64,000 nucleotides of DNA from a virus. This document shows positions 6,755-52,018 of the stretch, in pieces (the stretch's first letter is position 1; each line of letters starts with the position of its first letter). A model generated the notes under the pieces. That model was not told the origin of the DNA and searched no databases. It saw nothing but the letters and a program-made list of their open reading frames with translations. Location: positions 91,132 to 155,131 of IMG/VR virus record IMGVR_UViG_3300025889_000075. One strand, 5' to 3'. Position numbers and translations under genes: made by a program.

Positions 6755-7105
6755 ATGAATGAAAAAAATAATAATATCAGAAATGACTACGAATACTCCC
6801 GAGAGACTTATTACGATCTACTAGAGAAGGGAAGAGAGTCACTTGAGTTAATGATTGAAGTTGCCAGAGAAAGCGAGCATCCACGTGCATTCGAAGTCCT
6901 ATCAAACATGATGAAGAATATGGCAGACATTAATGATAAGTTAATGGACCTCAATAAGAAAAATAAAGACATTAACAAAGAAGAAGTTAAAGAGACAAAA
7001 CAGATTACAAATAATAACGTGTTTTTAGGAAGCACAACTGATCTACAAAGATTTTTACAGGATGAAAAAAAGGTGATTGATGTTACTCCAGAATCGAATG
7101 AATAA
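6755..7105 (+). CDS. g16: terminase small subunit gp16
   Basis: DYEYSR, SEHPRAFEV, NNNVFLGSTTDLQ. Confidence 0.9.
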   Translation: MNEKNNNIRNDYEYSRETYYDLLEKGRESLELMIEVARESEHPRAFEVLSNMMKNMADINDKLMDLNKKNKDINKEEVKETKQITNNNVFLGSTTDLQRFLQDEKKVIDVTPESNE

Positions 7106-8699
7106 TGAAACATATCTTGGCAATATCAATGTAAAACGCGATGGTGTTGTTCAAGAATGGACTAGGGAGCAAGTTCTTGAATATAAAAAGTGTATGGATA
7201 GTCCCGCATATTTTGCGGAAAAGTATGTCAAAATTATTTCGTTGGATAGGGGACTTGTTCCTTTTAATCTTTACCCCTATCAAAGAGATATGTTCGAACA
7301 TTTTAACAGCAATCGTTTTAATGTTGTTCTTGCTTGTCGACAAAGCGGTAAGTCTATCTCCTCCGTCGCCTATCTCCTTTGGTACGCTATATTCAATTCA
7401 GAAAAAACAATTGCTGTCCTTGCAAACAAAGGGGCAACTGCTAGAGAAATGTTGGCTCGTGTTACTCTTATGCTGGAGAACCTTCCTTTCTTTTTGCAAC
7501 CAGGTTGTAAAACTCTCAATAAAGGGAGTATTGATTTTTCTAATAACAGTAGGATTATTGCTGCTGCCACTAGCGGGTCTTCTATTCGCGGTATGTCTGT
7601 TAATTTGCTCTATCTCGATGAGTTTGCTTTTGTTGAGCGAGCAGCTGAATTCTACACTTCAACCTATCCTGTCGTCTCAGCAGGTAAAGAAACAAAAGTC
7701 ATCATTACCTCAACAGCAAACGGCATCGGAAACGTCTTCCATAAAATCTGGGAAGGTGCCAATCAAGGTGTAAATGAATTCAAACCATTTAGAGTCGACT
7801 GGTGGGATGTTCCAGGAAGAGACGAAAACTGGAAACAAGAAACTATCGCTAATACGAGTCCTCTCCAGTTTGATCAGGAATTTGGAAATACCTTTTTCGG
7901 AACTGGAGATACCCTGATAAATGCAGAGACGCTCTTGTCATTGCGAGCAAGAGCGCCACTACAAGTTTTAGAGGGCGGTCTTTTTCTTTCTTATAAAGAA
8001 CCTGCTAGCAAGCACGAATACATCATGACCGTTGATGTTTCGAAAGGAAGAGGTCAGGATTACTCTACGTTCAATATTATCGATATTACGACACGCCCTT
8101 TTGAACAGGTGGCTGTGTATCGGAACAATTCTATCTCTCCAATACTCTTCCCTAATATTATCTATAAGTATGCGAAAGTCTACAATGAAGCATATGTGGT
8201 TGTAGAATCAAATGATCAAGGTGGCGTTGTTTGTAATGGTTTGTATTATGATCTTGAATATGAAAATGTACATGTGTCATCAGCAATTAAAGCAAACTCT
8301 ATCGGGATTGAGATTAATAGGAAAACCAAGCGTCTTGGTTGCTCTGGTATTAAAGATATTTTAGAGGAACAGAAATTAGAAATTTATGATGAAAACACAA
8401 TTTTAGAAATATCAACTTTTGTCGCTAAAGGGCAGTCATATGAAGCAAGTGAAGGAAACCATGATGACTTAATGATGAATCTGGTCATGTTTGGTTATTT
8501 TGCAACAACGCAGTTTTTCAGCGACATGACAAACATCAATTTAAAAGAAATGATGTTCCAACAAAAAATGCGACAGATAGAAGAAGACATTGTTCCATTT
8601 GGTTTTATTGACGATGGATTAGATGCAATTGAGGTTTTAGAAGATCAAGAACGATGGAAAAATCAAGAGTGGTTGATTCCTCATCCCGAAGAATGGTAG
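7098..8699 (+). CDS. g17: terminase large subunit gp17
   Basis: RQSGKS Walker A, LYLDEFAF Walker B, HDDLMM nuclease motif; ATG at 7098 preferred. Confidence 0.95.
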   Translation: MNNETYLGNINVKRDGVVQEWTREQVLEYKKCMDSPAYFAEKYVKIISLDRGLVPFNLYPYQRDMFEHFNSNRFNVVLACRQSGKSISSVAYLLWYAIFNSEKTIAVLANKGATAREMLARVTLMLENLPFFLQPGCKTLNKGSIDFSNNSRIIAAATSGSSIRGMSVNLLYLDEFAFVERAAEFYTSTYPVVSAGKETKVIITSTANGIGNVFHKIWEGANQGVNEFKPFRVDWWDVPGRDENWKQETIANTSPLQFDQEFGNTFFGTGDTLINAETLLSLRARAPLQVLEGGLFLSYKEPASKHEYIMTVDVSKGRGQDYSTFNIIDITTRPFEQVAVYRNNSISPILFPNIIYKYAKVYNEAYVVVESNDQGGVVCNGLYYDLEYENVHVSSAIKANSIGIEINRKTKRLGCSGIKDILEEQKLEIYDENTILEISTFVAKGQSYEASEGNHDDLMMNLVMFGYFATTQFFSDMTNINLKEMMFQQKMRQIEEDIVPFGFIDDGLDAIEVLEDQERWKNQEWLIPHPEEW

Positions 8700-35029: not shown

Positions 35030-36398
35030 CCTTGAAAAAACTATACTTCGCAATCTTCTAACCAATGAAGAGTTTATGCGAAGAGTCTTACCTTTTATCA
35101 AAAAAGATTATTTCCAAGGAGTTTATAAAGAACTATTCACACAAGTCGTTAAGTATGTTTCAAGATATAATAAACTTCCAACTCAGGAAGCGTTCAAGAT
35201 TAATGTAGATAGTCTTGACACATTAACTGAAGAAACTTACAAACACGCAATTGATATTTTACCAGACATCTTTACCTTTAAAGAAGAGGACGGTGACTGG
35301 TTACTTGACACTACAGAAAAGTGGTGTCAGGATCGTGCGCTTCATGGTGCAATTATGGAGTCTATCACGATCCTTGACGGCAAGCATAACAAACTTACTA
35401 AGAATTCCTTGCCGGACCTTCTTCAAAATGCACTAGCAGTTTGCTTTGACACAAACATTGGTCATGATTACCTTGAGAATGTGGAAGAGAGATATGACTT
35501 TTATCATGAACAGGAAGAACGTATTCCTTTTGACCTAGATTATTTCAACCGCATTACTAAAGGTGGGTTGCCGAACAAAACCCTTAACATTGCGCTCGCT
35601 GGAACTGGCGTTGGTAAGAGTTTGTTCATGTGTCACAGCGCTGCTAGTGCGCTCTCTCAAGGATACAATGTATTATATATTACACTTGAAATGTCAGAAG
35701 AACGTATCGCTGAACGTATCGACGCTAACTTAATGAACGTCGCAATCGATCAGTTAGAAAATATGTCTAAGAGCATGTTTACTGATCGAGTGAAGCGAAT
35801 CGCTGATAAAACTAAAGGTAAGTTGATCATTAAAGAGTATCCGACTGGTCAAGCACACGCGAATCATTTCCGTGCGCTATTCAACGAGCTGAAACTGAAA
35901 CGCTCGTTCAAACCAGAGATTGTGTTCATAGATTACCTAAATATATGTGCGTCCTCGCGTATGAAAGGTATGGGTGGCGCAATTAATTCCTACAGTTATA
36001 TCAAGGCGATTGCTGAGGAAATACGTGGGTTGGCAGTAGAATTTGATGTTCCTATTATGTCTGCTACACAGACAACTCGTAGTGGGTTCTCTAGTTCTGA
36101 TCCTGGACTTGAAGATACATCTGAGTCATTTGGTCTGCCAGCAACTGCAGATTTAATGTTTGCTTTGATCTCGAATGAGGAACTTTCCTCTTTGAACCAG
36201 ATTATGGTTAAACAGTTGAAGAATCGTTATAATGACCCGAACGTGAATCTAAGATTCTGTATTGGGGTGGATCGTTCTAAGATGAGATTGTTTGATGTCG
36301 ATCAAACTAAAGATAAATCGATTATTGAGCAAGAAGATAAACCTGTGTTTGATAATACAACTGCAGGTAAGAGACTTAGTAGCATTAAAGTTTCATAG
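35022..36398 (+). CDS. g41: replicative helicase gp41
   Basis: AGTGVGKS, TLEMSEE, IDYLNIC, QLKNRY. Confidence 0.95.
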   Translation: MIDLEKTILRNLLTNEEFMRRVLPFIKKDYFQGVYKELFTQVVKYVSRYNKLPTQEAFKINVDSLDTLTEETYKHAIDILPDIFTFKEEDGDWLLDTTEKWCQDRALHGAIMESITILDGKHNKLTKNSLPDLLQNALAVCFDTNIGHDYLENVEERYDFYHEQEERIPFDLDYFNRITKGGLPNKTLNIALAGTGVGKSLFMCHSAASALSQGYNVLYITLEMSEERIAERIDANLMNVAIDQLENMSKSMFTDRVKRIADKTKGKLIIKEYPTGQAHANHFRALFNELKLKRSFKPEIVFIDYLNICASSRMKGMGGAINSYSYIKAIAEEIRGLAVEFDVPIMSATQTTRSGFSSSDPGLEDTSESFGLPATADLMFALISNEELSSLNQIMVKQLKNRYNDPNVNLRFCIGVDRSKMRLFDVDQTKDKSIIEQEDKPVFDNTTAGKRLSSIKVS

Positions 36399-48179: not shown

Positions 48180-48394
48180 CAGTTCGTTATAAACAAGAGA
48201 TCACTGACTGGACGAAAGCACCAGCAACCCCAAACCATATCTACATCACCGATGGGAAAACTCTCATCGGTGTCATTCCACAGTTTGGTCCTCAAAAAGG
48301 GATCAAAAAAATGTTCTCAAAACCCTATCGTCAATGGAGTGCCTCGCGTCGAAAGTTTCGAGAATTATCTCCGAAGGAAATTGAATCTTTATAA
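48176..48394 (+). CDS. hypothetical protein
   Basis: EITDW...PNHIY...SRRKF. Confidence 0.6.
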   Translation: MTVRYKQEITDWTKAPATPNHIYITDGKTLIGVIPQFGPQKGIKKMFSKPYRQWSASRRKFRELSPKEIESL

Positions 48395-48397
48395 ATA
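48390..48397 (+). promoter_or_regulatory. T4-type late promoter driving the exported-protein operon
   Basis: TATAAATA. Confidence 0.75.
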
Positions 48398-48431
48398 AGT
48401 TTCGATTAGATGATGTTACTGAGGTTATATT

Positions 48432-48980
48432 ATGCGATATTTAATTTTGTTGTTGTGCGTTTTGATTTCTTCTAATGTTTTTGCGGAAGAGACCGATATT
48501 ATTTACACCGATTCTACCACAAGGAGCACGGTAGATTCTAAAGCAAAGAATGAAACAACCCTGAAGTCTCCTCCCCCATCAGCAATCACGCCGACTATTA
48601 ATACTTCAAACTCTGATTTATGTACATTCGGCGTTGCTGGTGCAATACAGACACAGATACTAGGTATTTCTACTGGTACTCAGGTTACGGATGAGAACTG
48701 CGAAAGGTTGAAGTTGTCCAAGACCCTCTATGATATGGGTATGAAAGTTGCTGCGGTATCTACATTGTGTCAAGATCGTCGAGTTTTTGACGCAATGATG
48801 ATGGCAGGAACTCCTTGCCCTTATGATGGTTTGATTGGAGTTGAGGCAAAGAATGCTTGGGAGACAGACGAAGAACTGCAACCCATTGCATCAAAAAACG
48901 AAAAAGGAATGAAGGATGGTACTAAGACGTTGCTTGGTGGCGCTGGCGTTGCTAGTCTGCTCATCTTACTCCTCATCTGA
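48432..48980 (+). CDS. exported Cys-containing protein with C-terminal membrane anchor
   Basis: Signal peptide (..NVFA), four Cys in mature part, C-terminal hydrophobic tail. Confidence 0.7.
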   Translation: MRYLILLLCVLISSNVFAEETDIIYTDSTTRSTVDSKAKNETTLKSPPPSAITPTINTSNSDLCTFGVAGAIQTQILGISTGTQVTDENCERLKLSKTLYDMGMKVAAVSTLCQDRRVFDAMMMAGTPCPYDGLIGVEAKNAWETDEELQPIASKNEKGMKDGTKTLLGGAGVASLLILLLI

Positions 48981-49791
48981 GGAAGTTTTCGGGACGACAA
49001 ATAATGCTGCCCAATTTGGTTACAATTGGGTAATGACAAATGTGTTGCCGCAACAAGCAGGTCTAAGAGTCAATGGCGTAATATATCAATATACCGCTGT
49101 TAAAGAAACTCAAGACGATATGCTCGTTCATGTACAAAACGAAAACGCCAGAGGTCCTGGTTATATTTTCCGCGAAACAGATGACTGGTCTGGACTACCA
49201 GGAAACACAATTAACAAACTTGTTCCTATAAATATGATTGATATTTCCTATTGGGGAAATGGTTCGATTGAGGTTGAAGGAACTGGCGCAGTAGAAGACG
49301 CGGAAGTAATTTATTCGTATCAATACGATCCATGTTTTGATCCGCAATCTGATCCAAATTGCCCAGGGTATGTCGATTTGTTTTCAATTGAGGTTATGAA
49401 TCCTGATATTACAGACCCTTTAGATGAAGAGTATGTACAGGCAGAACTTGATAGAAAAGCAAATATGAAAGCGCAGGAGGAAGAGGAAAGAGAAGAGGCA
49501 AGAAAAAAGGCATTAGCAAATAAAACTGTTGAAAAAAACTTAGAATCAATTCTTGGCATTGTCAAAGAACTTGATATGTTTTCTTCACAAGCATTGTTGC
49601 AACATGACTTACTCGTCAATTTAAATCTTCTGCCAAACTCTTATCAAGTTGCTTTAAAAGGTGGTGTTTATCCTGATGGACAAATGCCCCCAGATGGAAA
49701 ACTGCCGTCTAATAAAAATGGATTGAGACTAGGAATGGGAAGTCAAATACTTCATGATAAATTGGTTGAGTTACAGTATGAAAAGAAATAA
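48916..49791 (+). CDS. exported protein (beta-rich domain plus coiled coil)
   Basis: Signal peptide; DPCFDPQSDPNCPGY. Confidence 0.65.
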   Translation: MVLRRCLVALALLVCSSYSSSEEVFGTTNNAAQFGYNWVMTNVLPQQAGLRVNGVIYQYTAVKETQDDMLVHVQNENARGPGYIFRETDDWSGLPGNTINKLVPINMIDISYWGNGSIEVEGTGAVEDAEVIYSYQYDPCFDPQSDPNCPGYVDLFSIEVMNPDITDPLDEEYVQAELDRKANMKAQEEEEREEARKKALANKTVEKNLESILGIVKELDMFSSQALLQHDLLVNLNLLPNSYQVALKGGVYPDGQMPPDGKLPSNKNGLRLGMGSQILHDKLVELQYEKK

Positions 49792-49808
49792 CATTAAGAG
49801 GAAATTTT

Positions 49809-50306
49809 ATGTTTAAGAAAATAATTACTTTGACTCTACTTACATTATGTGTAAATGCCTTTGCTGAAGATATACCGATTAGAGGTAAAGTTGAATCAAA
49901 GTGCATTGTGACTCAAGACACTGCTGGTGTTTATGGTAACCCATTGCCTGAAGAATTGTCCACTGATCCTACCGACGGTGGTGTTGATCCAGTTGTTCGT
50001 TATGATGTAATTCAAGCAAGTTACTACAAAGCAAAGATTACACATCCTGTATCTTTCAATGACAGCCCAACGTTGTCTGACGTTGTAACATGGACAGGTT
50101 CTACCTCTGTTGATCAAGTATCTGATACTAACATGTCAGGATACGATACAAGCAAGGTTGAATACGATAATGTCACAGAGGTTGATTTGACGGTTGCTGG
50201 TAGCACTTGGTTTAAAGTCGAATCACAAGCAGACTATGGGTATGATAAAGCATTCCCAGCGGGTGATTATGAGGCAATTGTTACTGCAGAGTGCATTGCC
50301 CTTTAA
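49809..50306 (+). CDS. exported fimbrial-subunit-like protein
   Basis: Signal peptide (..NAFA); N-terminal I.G.V...C; C-terminal AGDYEAIVT. Confidence 0.5.
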   Translation: MFKKIITLTLLTLCVNAFAEDIPIRGKVESKCIVTQDTAGVYGNPLPEELSTDPTDGGVDPVVRYDVIQASYYKAKITHPVSFNDSPTLSDVVTWTGSTSVDQVSDTNMSGYDTSKVEYDNVTEVDLTVAGSTWFKVESQADYGYDKAFPAGDYEAIVTAECIAL

Positions 50307-50318
50307 AAAGAAAATTAT

Positions 50319-50687
50319 ATGCGTTATGTGTTTTTGATTTTATTGTTAGTAAGTGGGCGAGCAATCGCCCACGAATTTACACCAACGTATCCGGTTCTAG
50401 AACCTTCTTACGTTTCAGGTGTTGTTAAAGCAAGTATGAGATTGTTCAATAAAAGGAGCGAGATATCATACTATGAAGTTGAGGTTTTTGATTCAGAATG
50501 GAAAAATCAAAAGTTTGCGATGTTGGGTTCAAGGATTATACCGATTGCTTACTTAGAGACCAAGGAGTTTGATGTTTTCTTTCCTGAAAAAAATAACGTT
50601 ACATATATTTGTACAAGGTCTAGATTGCTCACAGAAGGTAAGACGCAGACAAGATTGAGTTCAAGGATATGTTCTAAAGTTAAATAA
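50319..50687 (+). CDS. exported Ig-like (PapD-like?) protein
   Basis: Signal peptide (..AIA); beta-strand pattern; C-terminal Cys pair. Confidence 0.45.
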   Translation: MRYVFLILLLVSGRAIAHEFTPTYPVLEPSYVSGVVKASMRLFNKRSEISYYEVEVFDSEWKNQKFAMLGSRIIPIAYLETKEFDVFFPEKNNVTYICTRSRLLTEGKTQTRLSSRICSKVK

Positions 50688-50689
50688 TT

Positions 50690-51139
50690 ATGAAACTATT
50701 TTTTGTTATTGTGTTACTGATGATGAGTTTTAAAGTAAGCGCCGAATCTAGTTCATTAAATTTGGCGCTACCTAATACAAATCAACCGTATTCATCTGAC
50801 AGAATACGAGCGGGCAACTTAGAATGTCAGAATGCGATAGGTGGATCGACCAATTTAGAATTTGGTGTTGTTGGTATTTTAAATCAAAATGGTCCATATA
50901 ATAATTACTATGATCCTACTTTTGAACTGCCAGGATATGATAGTAATGGGTTTGTTAGAGACGTTGGTGTATATGCTAAGATTACAGTTCCATTAAATGC
51001 ACCGAAGGAGCGTTTGAATTGTAATGCGCTCTACAAGTTGGAACTTGAGCGTAGAAGATTAGAGATACAAAAACTGAAAGAAGAAGTTGCAAATCTACGA
51101 AGATTGCAATTTGCTGATGAGGGTTCAGATGGCGGCTAA
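50690..51139 (+). CDS. exported protein with beta-hairpin and C-terminal coiled coil
   Basis: Signal peptide (..VSA); LEFGVVGI / VGVYAKITVPL flanked by a Cys pair. Confidence 0.6.
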   Translation: MKLFFVIVLLMMSFKVSAESSSLNLALPNTNQPYSSDRIRAGNLECQNAIGGSTNLEFGVVGILNQNGPYNNYYDPTFELPGYDSNGFVRDVGVYAKITVPLNAPKERLNCNALYKLELERRRLEIQKLKEEVANLRRLQFADEGSDGG

Positions 51140-51689
51140 GAAGAAAGTAAAAGAAAAAGATCTAGGCGATGCGCTAGACAACATTGAAGGTGAAGTTGAG
51201 AACTTAAAGAATACCAAACTCAAACTCTTTGGTATTACAATGACACCGACCACCATTGCTGCGGCACTTACGCTTGTTGGTTCTATTATTGGCACGATGT
51301 ATGCTGGGTTTGAATCATACAAAGCATTCCAAGAAATGGCAGAGAAATTAGAAGTTCTTGATATCGACGCAGTTGAAGCAAGAAACGTTGCCATTGAGAC
51401 AAAACTTAATGACGCAATTGATTACACACGCGACATTAAGAATAGTTTGAGAGACGACATTGTGCGAATCGAACGAGTAACCGAAAGCACTAGCACTCGT
51501 ATGAAAACGGTACAGGATGAAATCGATACACGTATGAGAAACCTTACCGATTTAAGTCGCGAATCGGAAAAGGATGTTCGTGATACAATGCGTGAAACCG
51601 AAGATCGTATTGAAAAGAAGATGGAAAAATTAGATAAGGATCTCAGAGACACGCTACAAAAAGCACTCGACAACCCACTATCGGATTAA
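51129..51689 (+). CDS. single-TM coiled-coil protein
   Basis: TM IAAALTLVGSIIGTMYAG followed by long heptad region. Confidence 0.65.
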   Translation: MAAKKKVKEKDLGDALDNIEGEVENLKNTKLKLFGITMTPTTIAAALTLVGSIIGTMYAGFESYKAFQEMAEKLEVLDIDAVEARNVAIETKLNDAIDYTRDIKNSLRDDIVRIERVTESTSTRMKTVQDEIDTRMRNLTDLSRESEKDVRDTMRETEDRIEKKMEKLDKDLRDTLQKALDNPLSD

Positions 51690-51694
51690 AATCT

Positions 51695-52018
51695 ATGAGA
51701 TATTTATTACTACTCTCACTCTTCCCGATGTCTGCATTCGCGGGTCCATACATCGAAATCAAATCAGAAGTCACCTACAAAGACTGGGCAGTTTCGGATC
51801 AAACCAATCACACAAGGTTTGGTTGGGAAAAGAAAACCCAGACCGGAAACAATGTCTACTTTGAAGCAGGTCATATGACTGGGGGTTATTCTTGGGAAGC
51901 AGGATACAAGACCCGATTGTCCGATAACCTCGTTGTCAAAGGAAAACTCGAAACCAAGGGAGAGAGTGGTTTCAAACCAAAACCCAAATTAGAGACCGAA
52001 ATTAGATATACTTGGTAA
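51695..52018 (+). CDS. small exported outer-membrane beta-strand protein
   Basis: Signal peptide (..AFA), alternating strands, C-terminal IRYTW. Confidence 0.55.
   Translation: MRYLLLLSLFPMSAFAGPYIEIKSEVTYKDWAVSDQTNHTRFGWEKKTQTGNNVYFEAGHMTGGYSWEAGYKTRLSDNLVVKGKLETKGESGFKPKPKLETEIRYTW

Follow-up and report, generated by a model that had tools for sequence, protein, structure and literature searches.

Late-promoter motif and seven tightly packed genes

The DNA analyzed here, called the window below, is the final 64 kb (64,000 nucleotides [nt], positions 91,132 to 155,131) of the 155-kb IMG/VR contig IMGVR_UViG_3300025889_000075 (38% G+C), which belongs to an uncultured marine T4-like myovirus. 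The completeness of the record is estimated at 89%, and its genes include those for a family B DNA polymerase, a DnaB-like helicase, and TET/JBP, together with further typical genes. This study concerns seven genes, g1 to g7, which lie on the + strand of the window behind a T4-type late-promoter motif and belong to a cassette shared by many viruses. The features are as follows, with protein lengths in amino acids (aa).

48390..48397, + strand, T4-type late-promoter motif TATAAATA, 34 nt 5' of the g1 ATG
48432-48980, + strand, g1, 182 aa
48916-49791, + strand, g2, 291 aa, overlapping g1 by 65 nt
49809-50306, + strand, g3, 165 aa
50319-50687, + strand, g4, 122 aa
50690-51139, + strand, g5, 149 aa
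51129-51689, + strand, g6, 186 aa, overlapping g5 by 11 nt
51695-52018, + strand, g7, 107 aa

A first-pass annotation, made from the sequence alone, had described a late motif followed by seven tightly packed genes, and this layout (motif at 48390, genes at 48432-52018 on the + strand) was confirmed; genes that do not overlap are separated by 2-17 nt. The motif occurs nine times in the window, always on the + strand, versus 4.7 copies expected, and nine or more copies were obtained in 2 of 100 shuffles. Promoter-like and terminator-like sites within the block showed no excess over shuffles. Sigma-70-like sites were found ahead of the next genes, 52046 and 52334; on this loose check, the earlier description of the surroundings as an otherwise early region is plausible. 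The start of g6 was set at the ATG at 51129, which was chosen to fit homologs starting with MAE or MAK. A second copy of TATAAATA is located at 49227-49234 of the window, on the coding strand within g2 (frame context ...PINMID...) and upstream of g3, and is probably a chance occurrence.

Conservation of the cassette

Scanning IMG/VR with g3 yielded 47 loci on viral contigs. The order g1 to g5 was identical in all sufficiently long loci among them, with identities of 32-87%, and a g6-type protein comes after g1-g5 in relatives, sometimes behind inserted genes. The late motif TATAAATA was detected at most 120 nt 5' of the g1 homolog, mostly at 28-45 nt, in 31 of 45 related loci. The overlap between g1 and g2 (65-75 nt) was kept in all relatives examined, including podovirus-type loci and the second architecture described below. 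In the window, these 65 nt (48916-48980) are read in two frames, one giving the hydrophobic end of g1 and the other the hydrophobic signal peptide of g2; the conserved overlap suggests translational coupling. The order was permuted to g1, g2, g6, g3, g4, g5 in one locus (L084), with the gene set unchanged. By contrast, none of the genes flanking the block in the window was conserved among the relatives found with g3. In most relatives g7 is absent, relocated upstream of g1, or detached from the block, and its presence in the cassette is optional. Because order, late motif, and g1/g2 overlap are kept while the flanks vary, the block is a real, widespread, mobile, and co-conserved late cassette. 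The co-conservation on which the idea of a joint assembly depended is thus seen in other genomes, with g1-g5 collinear in the 47 viral contigs.

The g3 family comprises 1546 metagenomic clusters at 90% identity, none of them named, and 117 clusters at 50% identity. A full HMMER search with the g3 profile returned these 117 clusters with no named family and no clearly bacterial relative; the contexts of distant members lie mostly on contigs too short to be read. Searching cultured phages with the DNA of the block gave no match in near mode and, in distant mode, only the g1 domain of Pelagibacter phage HTVC115P (gp54, 75% DNA identity), and tblastn searches of cultured phages with g2, g3, and a typical g6 gave no matches. 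Our literature searches found no description of the module. Since the g3 family has 1546 unnamed clusters and part of the cassette is carried by SAR11 and Roseobacter phages (see below), very abundant ocean viruses carry the block, which is a blank in their annotation.

Export signals and cysteine residues

Signal peptides were called by a rule of our own, which considers a hydrophobic core and small residues. By this rule, g1-g5 and g7 have signal-peptide-like N-termini, in agreement with the six signal peptides claimed earlier. Such N-termini were found in 88-100% of the g1-g5 homologs, though the N-terminal sequence itself is not conserved. The mature proteins contain four (g1), two (g2, g3, g4, and g5 each), or no Cys residues (g6 and g7), and the paired Cys previously ascribed to most of the proteins are present in five of the six with signal peptides. 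The remaining protein, g6, has a transmembrane (TM) segment at residues ~43-61 followed by a long helical stretch, and corresponds to the single TM and coiled-coil protein of the earlier description. No lipobox was detected in the block proteins, g5 and g7 included.

g3, a subunit-like β-sandwich

The protein g3 consists of a signal peptide, a conserved N-terminal extension, [DE][IV]P[IV].G.V.SKC, in which G26, V28, and C32 are invariant, and a β-sandwich. In the AlphaFold2 (AF2) model (predicted local distance difference test [pLDDT] 89, predicted TM-score [pTM] 0.76), the first 12 residues of the mature protein (residues 20-31), which carry the N-terminal motif, are unstructured and the extension is left unmodeled. 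The only two Cys residues of the mature protein are C32 on the first strand and C162 on the last, and the C-terminus reads FP.G.Y.A.V.A.C. Distant relatives keep both the N-terminal and the C-terminal motif. With a mean column identity of 68%, g3 is, together with the g1 domain, among the most conserved parts of the block.

In Foldseek, the top rows for the g3 model were chaperone-usher pilins, namely the PapGII pilin domain, CfaB, FimF/FimG, Caf1, and CS17 (pilin entries 2wmp_B, 4y2l, 9fy9_F, 5iqm, and 3dos_E), although the matches were weak (E 1e-3 to 3e-2, TM-score 0.4-0.5). An alternating-hydrophobic N-terminal segment, a conserved Gly before the first Cys, and a last strand with G.Y.A.V in g3 recall fimbrial subunits. 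In the model, the N-terminal motif is consistent with a donor strand and no proof of one. In chaperone-usher pilins a disulfide connects strands A and B, whereas the two Cys of g3 would pair its first strand with its last. The Z score against the cannula protein CanA in VIA-align was 5.8-6.2, and BFVD contained no informative match to g3.

g4, an Ig-like domain resembling half of a pilus chaperone

The adjacent protein g4 comprises a signal peptide and a single seven-stranded Ig-like domain (AF2 pLDDT 84) with ~105 mature residues. Its mature N-terminus starts with an invariant H-x-x-TPTYP (alignment A1). The invariant C98 and C118 sit on strands 96-102 and 116-120 of the model, the last two, with a long loop of mean pLDDT ~66 between them. 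The Foldseek top rows for g4 included DraB at rank 2 and Caf1M at rank 4, as well as FaeE, FimC, PapD, and MSP/ASH "PapD-like" domains (E 2e-3 to 2e-2, query TM-score [TMq] 0.45-0.51). The nearest named Atlas cluster was PapD_N, with a score of 0.82 that serves as a lead only. The small Ig/PapD-type domain predicted at 50319 is thus compatible with the matches in Foldseek, VIA-align (values below), and Atlas, as a fold only.

Chaperones of the F1-G1 long (FGL) type are defined by a disulfide between strands F1 and G1 together with a long F1-G1 loop. The g4 model fits this feature through its Cys pair, with one Cys on each of the two final strands, and through the long loop that separates these strands; domain 1 of FGL chaperones is among its closest fold matches. 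The arrangement also recalls FGL-type chaperone-usher systems (Caf1M-Caf1, SafB-SafA, and DraB/AfaB) in that an exported β-sandwich "subunit" and an Ig-like "chaperone" are encoded by adjacent genes. As neighbors, g3 and g4 weakly point to two partners of one pathway; the joint signal exceeds that of either protein alone and is still a resemblance. The block differs from chaperone-usher systems in lacking an usher, a second chaperone domain, and sequence-profile similarity, in consisting of phage genes behind a late promoter, and in containing g1, g2, g5, and g6, which have no counterpart in that pathway. The absence of a canonical usher, stated in the first-pass annotation, was confirmed by searching the 155-kb record with the usher hidden Markov model (HMM) PF00577, a family of ~800-aa proteins, which gave no match at E ≤1; no protein of the block exceeds 291 aa. 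A histidine-brace copper site was also considered for g4 and rejected, as only a single His is invariant and no CopC, YcnI, or lytic polysaccharide monooxygenase (LPMO) family matched.

Sub-module g3-g4-g5 in Vibrio phages

The third exported protein of this group, g5, has a signal peptide, an SSSLNL.LP motif, a Cys-bracketed β-rich region (alignment A4), and a C-terminal charged heptad helix, LY.LELE..RLE...L..E...LR.L.F. It matched phrog_37374 (E 9e-9), whereas no PDB match and nothing usable in Pfam, NCBIfam, or the Atlas was found. Counterparts of g3, g4, and g5 occur in the T5-like Vibrio phage Ceto as three adjacent exported proteins in the same order, without g1, g2, and g6. In hhalign comparisons with the Ceto proteins, the g3 family alignment reached a probability of 86% (E 5e-6), the g4 family alignment 88% over the full length (E 3e-6), and the g5 family alignment 97.5% against a 125-aa protein (E 7.5e-12). 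The Ceto trio are the type members of phrog_25895, phrog_25455, and phrog_37374, and g3, g4, and g5 match the same families weakly. When the Ceto g3-like and g4-like proteins were used in tblastn, each retrieved 179 Vibrio phage records of at least three genome types; the two sets were equated by their matching record and host counts, not record by record, and no phages other than those of Vibrio were retrieved. Vibrio phages that are easy to grow, Ceto and pVp-1 among many, thus carry the g3-g4-g5 core, which makes it accessible to phage genetics.

A distant variant on a Joint Genome Institute (JGI) metagenome contig of 1742 bp (L079) comprises the end of a g5-like gene, two tandem g3-like genes, and an apparent tryptophan synthase alpha gene (trpA). 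It could represent a bacterial chromosomal copy or a phage auxiliary gene.

Sub-module g1-g2-g6 in marine phages

From N- to C-terminus, g1 consists of a signal peptide, a Ser/Thr/Asn-rich spacer, a Pro-rich stretch, a four-Cys domain, a short linker, and a hydrophobic C-terminal tail. The four-Cys domain, DLC..GA.QTQILGIS...NC...MGMKVAAVS..C...GTPCP, is highly conserved, with a mean column identity of 60%; alignment A5 has 51 invariant columns. The hydrophobic tail, on which the first-pass annotation had laid no stress, is kept in 32 of 33 homologs; it is predicted to anchor g1 in the inner membrane, with the rest of the protein on the periplasmic side. Homologs of g1 were found in 13 phage records, and the protein matches phrog_20531 (E 1e-12); Pfam, NCBIfam, and PDB gave no match, and the Atlas nothing usable. 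In g2, an N-terminal β-rich domain with C..PQ.DP.CPGY and an acidic helical linker precede a conserved C-terminal ...H..MV..QY (alignment A3), and its relatives range from 290 to 853 aa. No Pfam, PDB, or usable Atlas match was obtained for g2, whose stored Atlas model is poor (pLDDT 0.39), and sequence searches of Pfam, NCBIfam, and PDB with the long forms returned nothing usable.

For the third member, g6, the predicted layout is a short N-terminus in the cytoplasm, one TM segment, and a long coiled-coil-like stretch in the periplasm; the protein ends with a conserved ALDNPL motif. It gave only weak matches of the coiled-coil type, to phrog_1009 (9e-4) and to the Rz-like phrog_739 (E 0.08, chance level), and nothing usable in NCBIfam, PDB, or the Atlas. 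The single TM segment is weakly hydrophobic and rich in Gly, Ser, and Thr, and as such is reminiscent, by analogy, of signal-arrest-release segments able to exit the membrane. The corresponding stretch (window 51240-51320) is rich in Gly, Ser, Thr, and Ala also in relatives, an example being LLTALSTLGGATWGAF; the TM threshold was passed by 11 of 31 homologs.

A search of all GTDB species genomes with the g1 profile yielded 29 contigs in metagenome-assembled genomes (MAGs) of unrelated phyla, including archaea. Cellular homologs of g1 were considered and rejected, the 29 MAG contigs being read as phage DNA in bins. A second architecture was found on these contigs, in which g1, a long g2-type protein (560-853 aa), and g6 occur without g3-g5. 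The long g2-type genes have the same overlap with g1, and their products have a related C-terminal end, ...LQY or LQW. The g1-g2-g6 triad was found in the cultured Pelagibacter phages HTVC115P, HTVC023P, HTVC202P, HTVC033P, Baldr, and the myovirus Mosig, in the Roseobacter phages CRP-207 and CRP-810, and, more distantly, in Ralstonia phage RSP15. In CRP-810 (OR671924, L100 4474-6282), the g1 homolog is gp53 and the g6 homolog is gp51, which starts with MEDAELKIGGFKFKG... and ends with ...NKNPLGR; their database labels, "OmpA family protein" for gp53 and "lysozyme" for gp51, found no support in Pfam and were discarded. In the uncultured Caudoviricetes record MW202481.1, the gene at 35511-35888, which adjoins a g1 homolog, is labeled "transport protein tonB"; it probably encodes a g2-type protein with an acidic or Pro-rich linker.

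g7, an outer-membrane barrel

The last gene of the block encodes a signal peptide and a small β-barrel of the outer-membrane type with ~90 mature residues. Its C-terminus, ...RYTW, ends in the aromatic residue that had been noted as typical of outer-membrane proteins (OMPs), and g7 belongs to the Pfam family Phage_OMP (PF24653; E 2e-10, 41.4 bits versus a cut-off of 27). A six-frame search of the genome with PF24653 scored g7 at 37.4 bits, and g7 matched phrog_417 (5e-11). Although g7 is a member of this cyanophage outer-membrane-protein-like barrel family at the Pfam threshold, this likeness concerns the seventh, optional gene only. We know of no tested function for PF24653.

Lysis genes around the cassette

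Outside the window, at contig 1595-2414, the genome encodes a canonical overlapped spanin pair. The i-spanin (187 aa, phrog_739 2e-11) has an N-terminal TM segment and a coiled coil, and the o-spanin (145 aa, phrog_812 3e-12) has a lipobox-like LLLQSC and a Pro-rich mature start. Because this Rz/Rz1-type pair is present elsewhere, the cassette is not the spanin of this phage. A lysozyme-domain gene (Pfam Phage_lysozyme) lies at contig 6869-7315, although its strongest PHROG matches are tail or baseplate lysozymes, and no T-type holin was found in the genome.

In 11 close relatives, the same spanin genes are located 3-4.9 kb downstream of the block. In the present record, contig positions 1-1600 (a lipase fragment, a 54-aa TM protein, two DUF-like genes, and a basic 54-aa protein) correspond to the genes that come after the cassette in L002-L014; therefore, the record looks circularly permuted. 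This phage looks to have an insertion of about 12-13 kb between the cassette and the spanin block. Other lysis genes occur beside the cassette or its parts: an endolysin gene (phrog_873, E 3e-49) lies between g5 and g6 in L041, a lysozyme gene follows the g1-g2-g6 triad in L067 and L074 and stands ahead of the block in L007, and a T-type holin and an endolysin are encoded 0.6-1.3 kb downstream of g5 in Ceto and pVp-1. In both architectures, a class-3 lipase/esterase gene (phrog_21992, 1.5e-26) recurs 0.8-4.9 kb away from the cassette (L004 9205-9987, L009 9519-10292, L067 8962-9696, and others); of this gene, the present genome has only a C-terminal fragment, at the contig start (18-278). The association with lysis genes is recurrent, not universal.

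Proposed role in the host envelope

We tentatively favor the reading that the mobile late cassette delivers disulfide-stabilized proteins to the periplasm and inner membrane of the infected cell shortly before lysis, where they would carry out an accessory remodeling of the envelope for lysis or release. In this proposal, g4, with its single domain, would be related by fold alone to the domain with which FGL chaperones bind their subunits; its strands F and G would share a disulfide and a long connecting loop, and its N-terminal strand is conserved. We infer that it may hold or prime g3, which would be a β-sandwich subunit with a free pilin-like N-terminal strand. As a β and coiled-coil protein, g5 might be an oligomeric partner, and the tail-anchored, Cys-rich g1, the secreted g2 of variable size, and the N-anchored coiled coil of g6 might tether the system to the inner membrane. 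Because neither an usher nor a pore was found, one would expect an assembly that lies in the periplasm or is embedded in the envelope rather than a surface pilus. Acting at a late stage, it would prepare the envelope for lysis or release alongside the ordinary endolysin and spanins, without replacing them. A more specific version, which we regard as possible though doubtful, is that an usher-independent one-domain chaperone and a donor-strand subunit would form a periplasmic polymer in the dying host as part of a release program in several unrelated lineages (marine T4-like phages and T5-like and other Vibrio siphoviruses). Marine myoviruses would couple to it the inner-membrane triad that pelagiphages and roseophages carry alone.

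Several results weigh against these proposals. The g3 protein had no Pfam or NCBIfam match at E ≤1, and a PDB profile search gave nothing. In hhalign, g3 reached a probability of 34% against 11 Escherichia coli type 1-like pilins over 30 columns, which covered only the signal peptide and N-terminal motif, and in VIA-align MSCRAMM and other generic β-sandwiches were placed above pilins, with a best Z score of 7.7 and all values below 8. The earlier view of g3 as pilin-like therefore stands for the linear hallmarks and, weakly, for the fold seen in Foldseek; a pilin profile match is missing, and VIA-align sees a generic sandwich. For g4, VIA-align placed FimC (Z 8.3, 93 residues, root mean square deviation [rmsd] 3.4) second and SafB (8.1) third among 48,161 chains and gave 7.7 for YadV, but a GH2 Ig domain came first (Z 9.7), MSP and FnIII domains reached 7-7.8, and a Z score of ~8 is the level of what the tool calls a "common arrangement." There was no Pfam or NCBIfam match to g4 at E ≤1; the PapD_N HMM (PF00345) found nothing in the genome at E ≤10, and hhalign against E. 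coli FimC, SfmC, YadV, and YraI gave a probability of 0.4%. As a single domain, g4 also misses the second chaperone domain, which contributes to the subunit-binding cleft. With regard to lysis, the fetched flanks contained a lysis gene in 19 of 89 loci, many of them close kin and searched with a small query panel, and if the contig is circularly permuted, the distance from the block to the spanins is at least about 13 kb. Finally, the one dedicated machine proposed in the first-pass annotation is borne out as a co-conserved, late-promoter-headed set of exported proteins, but is weakened as a single unit, as g1-g2-g6 and g3-g4-g5 each occur alone and one joint machine is not required.

The cassette might instead be a lysis or lysis-timing device without any chaperone-subunit assembly, in which g6 would act as a holin-, antiholin-, or spanin-like protein with g1, g2, and g5 as partners in the periplasm, and the Ig folds would be incidental. 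Such a device would suit the lack of a detectable T-type holin, the recurrence of the block beside endolysin, holin, and spanin genes in several lineages, and the nearby lipase/esterase in both architectures. The topology of g6 resembles that of i-spanins or class III proteins. As in the two-component spanins lambda Rz/Rz1 and T4 PseT.3/PseT.2, g6 combines an N-terminal TM segment with a coiled coil predicted to be in the periplasm and with a conserved C-terminal end, its gene overlaps that of an exported neighbor, and the block is often near lysis genes. Unlike these spanins, g6 has no outer-membrane lipoprotein partner, since no lipobox protein is encoded in the block, and its phrog_739 match is of the kind that any coiled coil gives. 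The phage already has its canonical overlapped pair, and Vibrio phages have g3-g5 without g6 in addition to a holin of their own. We consider this alternative unlikely. The non-canonical lysis apparatus suggested earlier agrees with the position of the block beside lysis genes in several lineages, but the phage has a canonical spanin pair of its own.

Receptor masking or protection of progeny, which we judge to be rather improbable, would mean that, late in infection, the exported proteins cover or obstruct some component of the host surface or periplasm, such that virions are not lost on infected cells and debris or superinfection is blocked. The T5 Llp and Cor proteins follow the same logic and are encoded beside tail or receptor-binding genes. 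In three Vibrio phage types, g3-g4-g5 is always directly 3' of a large phrog_10818 protein (~800-850 aa), which, to judge by its size, may be a tail-end protein, and in Ceto the triple is followed by a small lipoprotein gene. In siphoviruses and podoviruses, the block comes after tail-end genes. The triad of HTVC115P and CRP-810 follows tail-fiber-like genes, the cassette is moron-like with its own promoter and unconserved flanks, and g7 is an outer-membrane protein. Known exported morons (lambda Lom and Bor, phi80/N15 Cor, and T5 Llp) target the host envelope without being part of the virion, and their genes adjoin tail or lysis genes; lambda Lom is, like g7, a small outer-membrane barrel. 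They are, however, single genes with known receptor-blocking or serum-resistance roles, whereas the present six genes are co-conserved and show no sequence relation to them. Receptor-specific proteins would be expected to diverge, but g3 and the g1 domain are highly conserved (68% and 60%) across phages that must differ in their hosts. The window contains no lipoprotein or receptor-like partner, and the known T4 and T5 exclusion proteins are expressed early.

A surface pilus or envelope-spanning fiber, exported through a pore of g5, g1, or g7 or through a host usher, is very unlikely. The pilin-like features of g3 and chaperone-like features of g4, the outer-membrane barrel of g7, and the Cys-bracketed β segments and oligomerizing helix of g5 would fit it, but neither an usher HMM match nor a protein of usher size was found, g7 is too small for a secretion channel and missing from most relatives, PDB searches of g1 and g5 yielded nothing indicating a pore, and reliance on a host usher is improbable for such diverse hosts. 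Because an outer-membrane conduit was not found, there is no indication of the surface filament that had been proposed. Least probable of all, the genes may have no joint function and be unrelated small exported "moron" proteins traveling together, in keeping with the separate occurrence of the sub-modules and g7 and with the lack of an assigned function for any member, but at odds with the order and tight coupling kept down to 32-50% identity, the g1/g2 overlap kept in both architectures, the matching host counts of the 179 Vibrio records each for the g3-like and g4-like queries, and the permuted orders that retain the same gene set.

Lysis and release are poorly understood in such phages, and late exported proteins that are conserved as a set near lysis genes offer a handle on them. 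If the usher-independent periplasmic polymer considered above is real, phages would possess envelope machinery of a new class, and chaperone-subunit assembly would have a new, minimal form, carried by viruses that are among the most abundant in the sea. An usher-less, one-domain pair of g4 and g3, if real, would bear on the origin of donor-strand systems.

Other genes beside the cassette

Two further genes recur beside the cassette in one clade of relatives. A staphylococcal-nuclease-like (SNase) gene is present in L030, L038, and L084, and a gene for a small DxDxDG-type (EF-hand-like) protein with two TM segments is present in L021, L029, L030, and L038.

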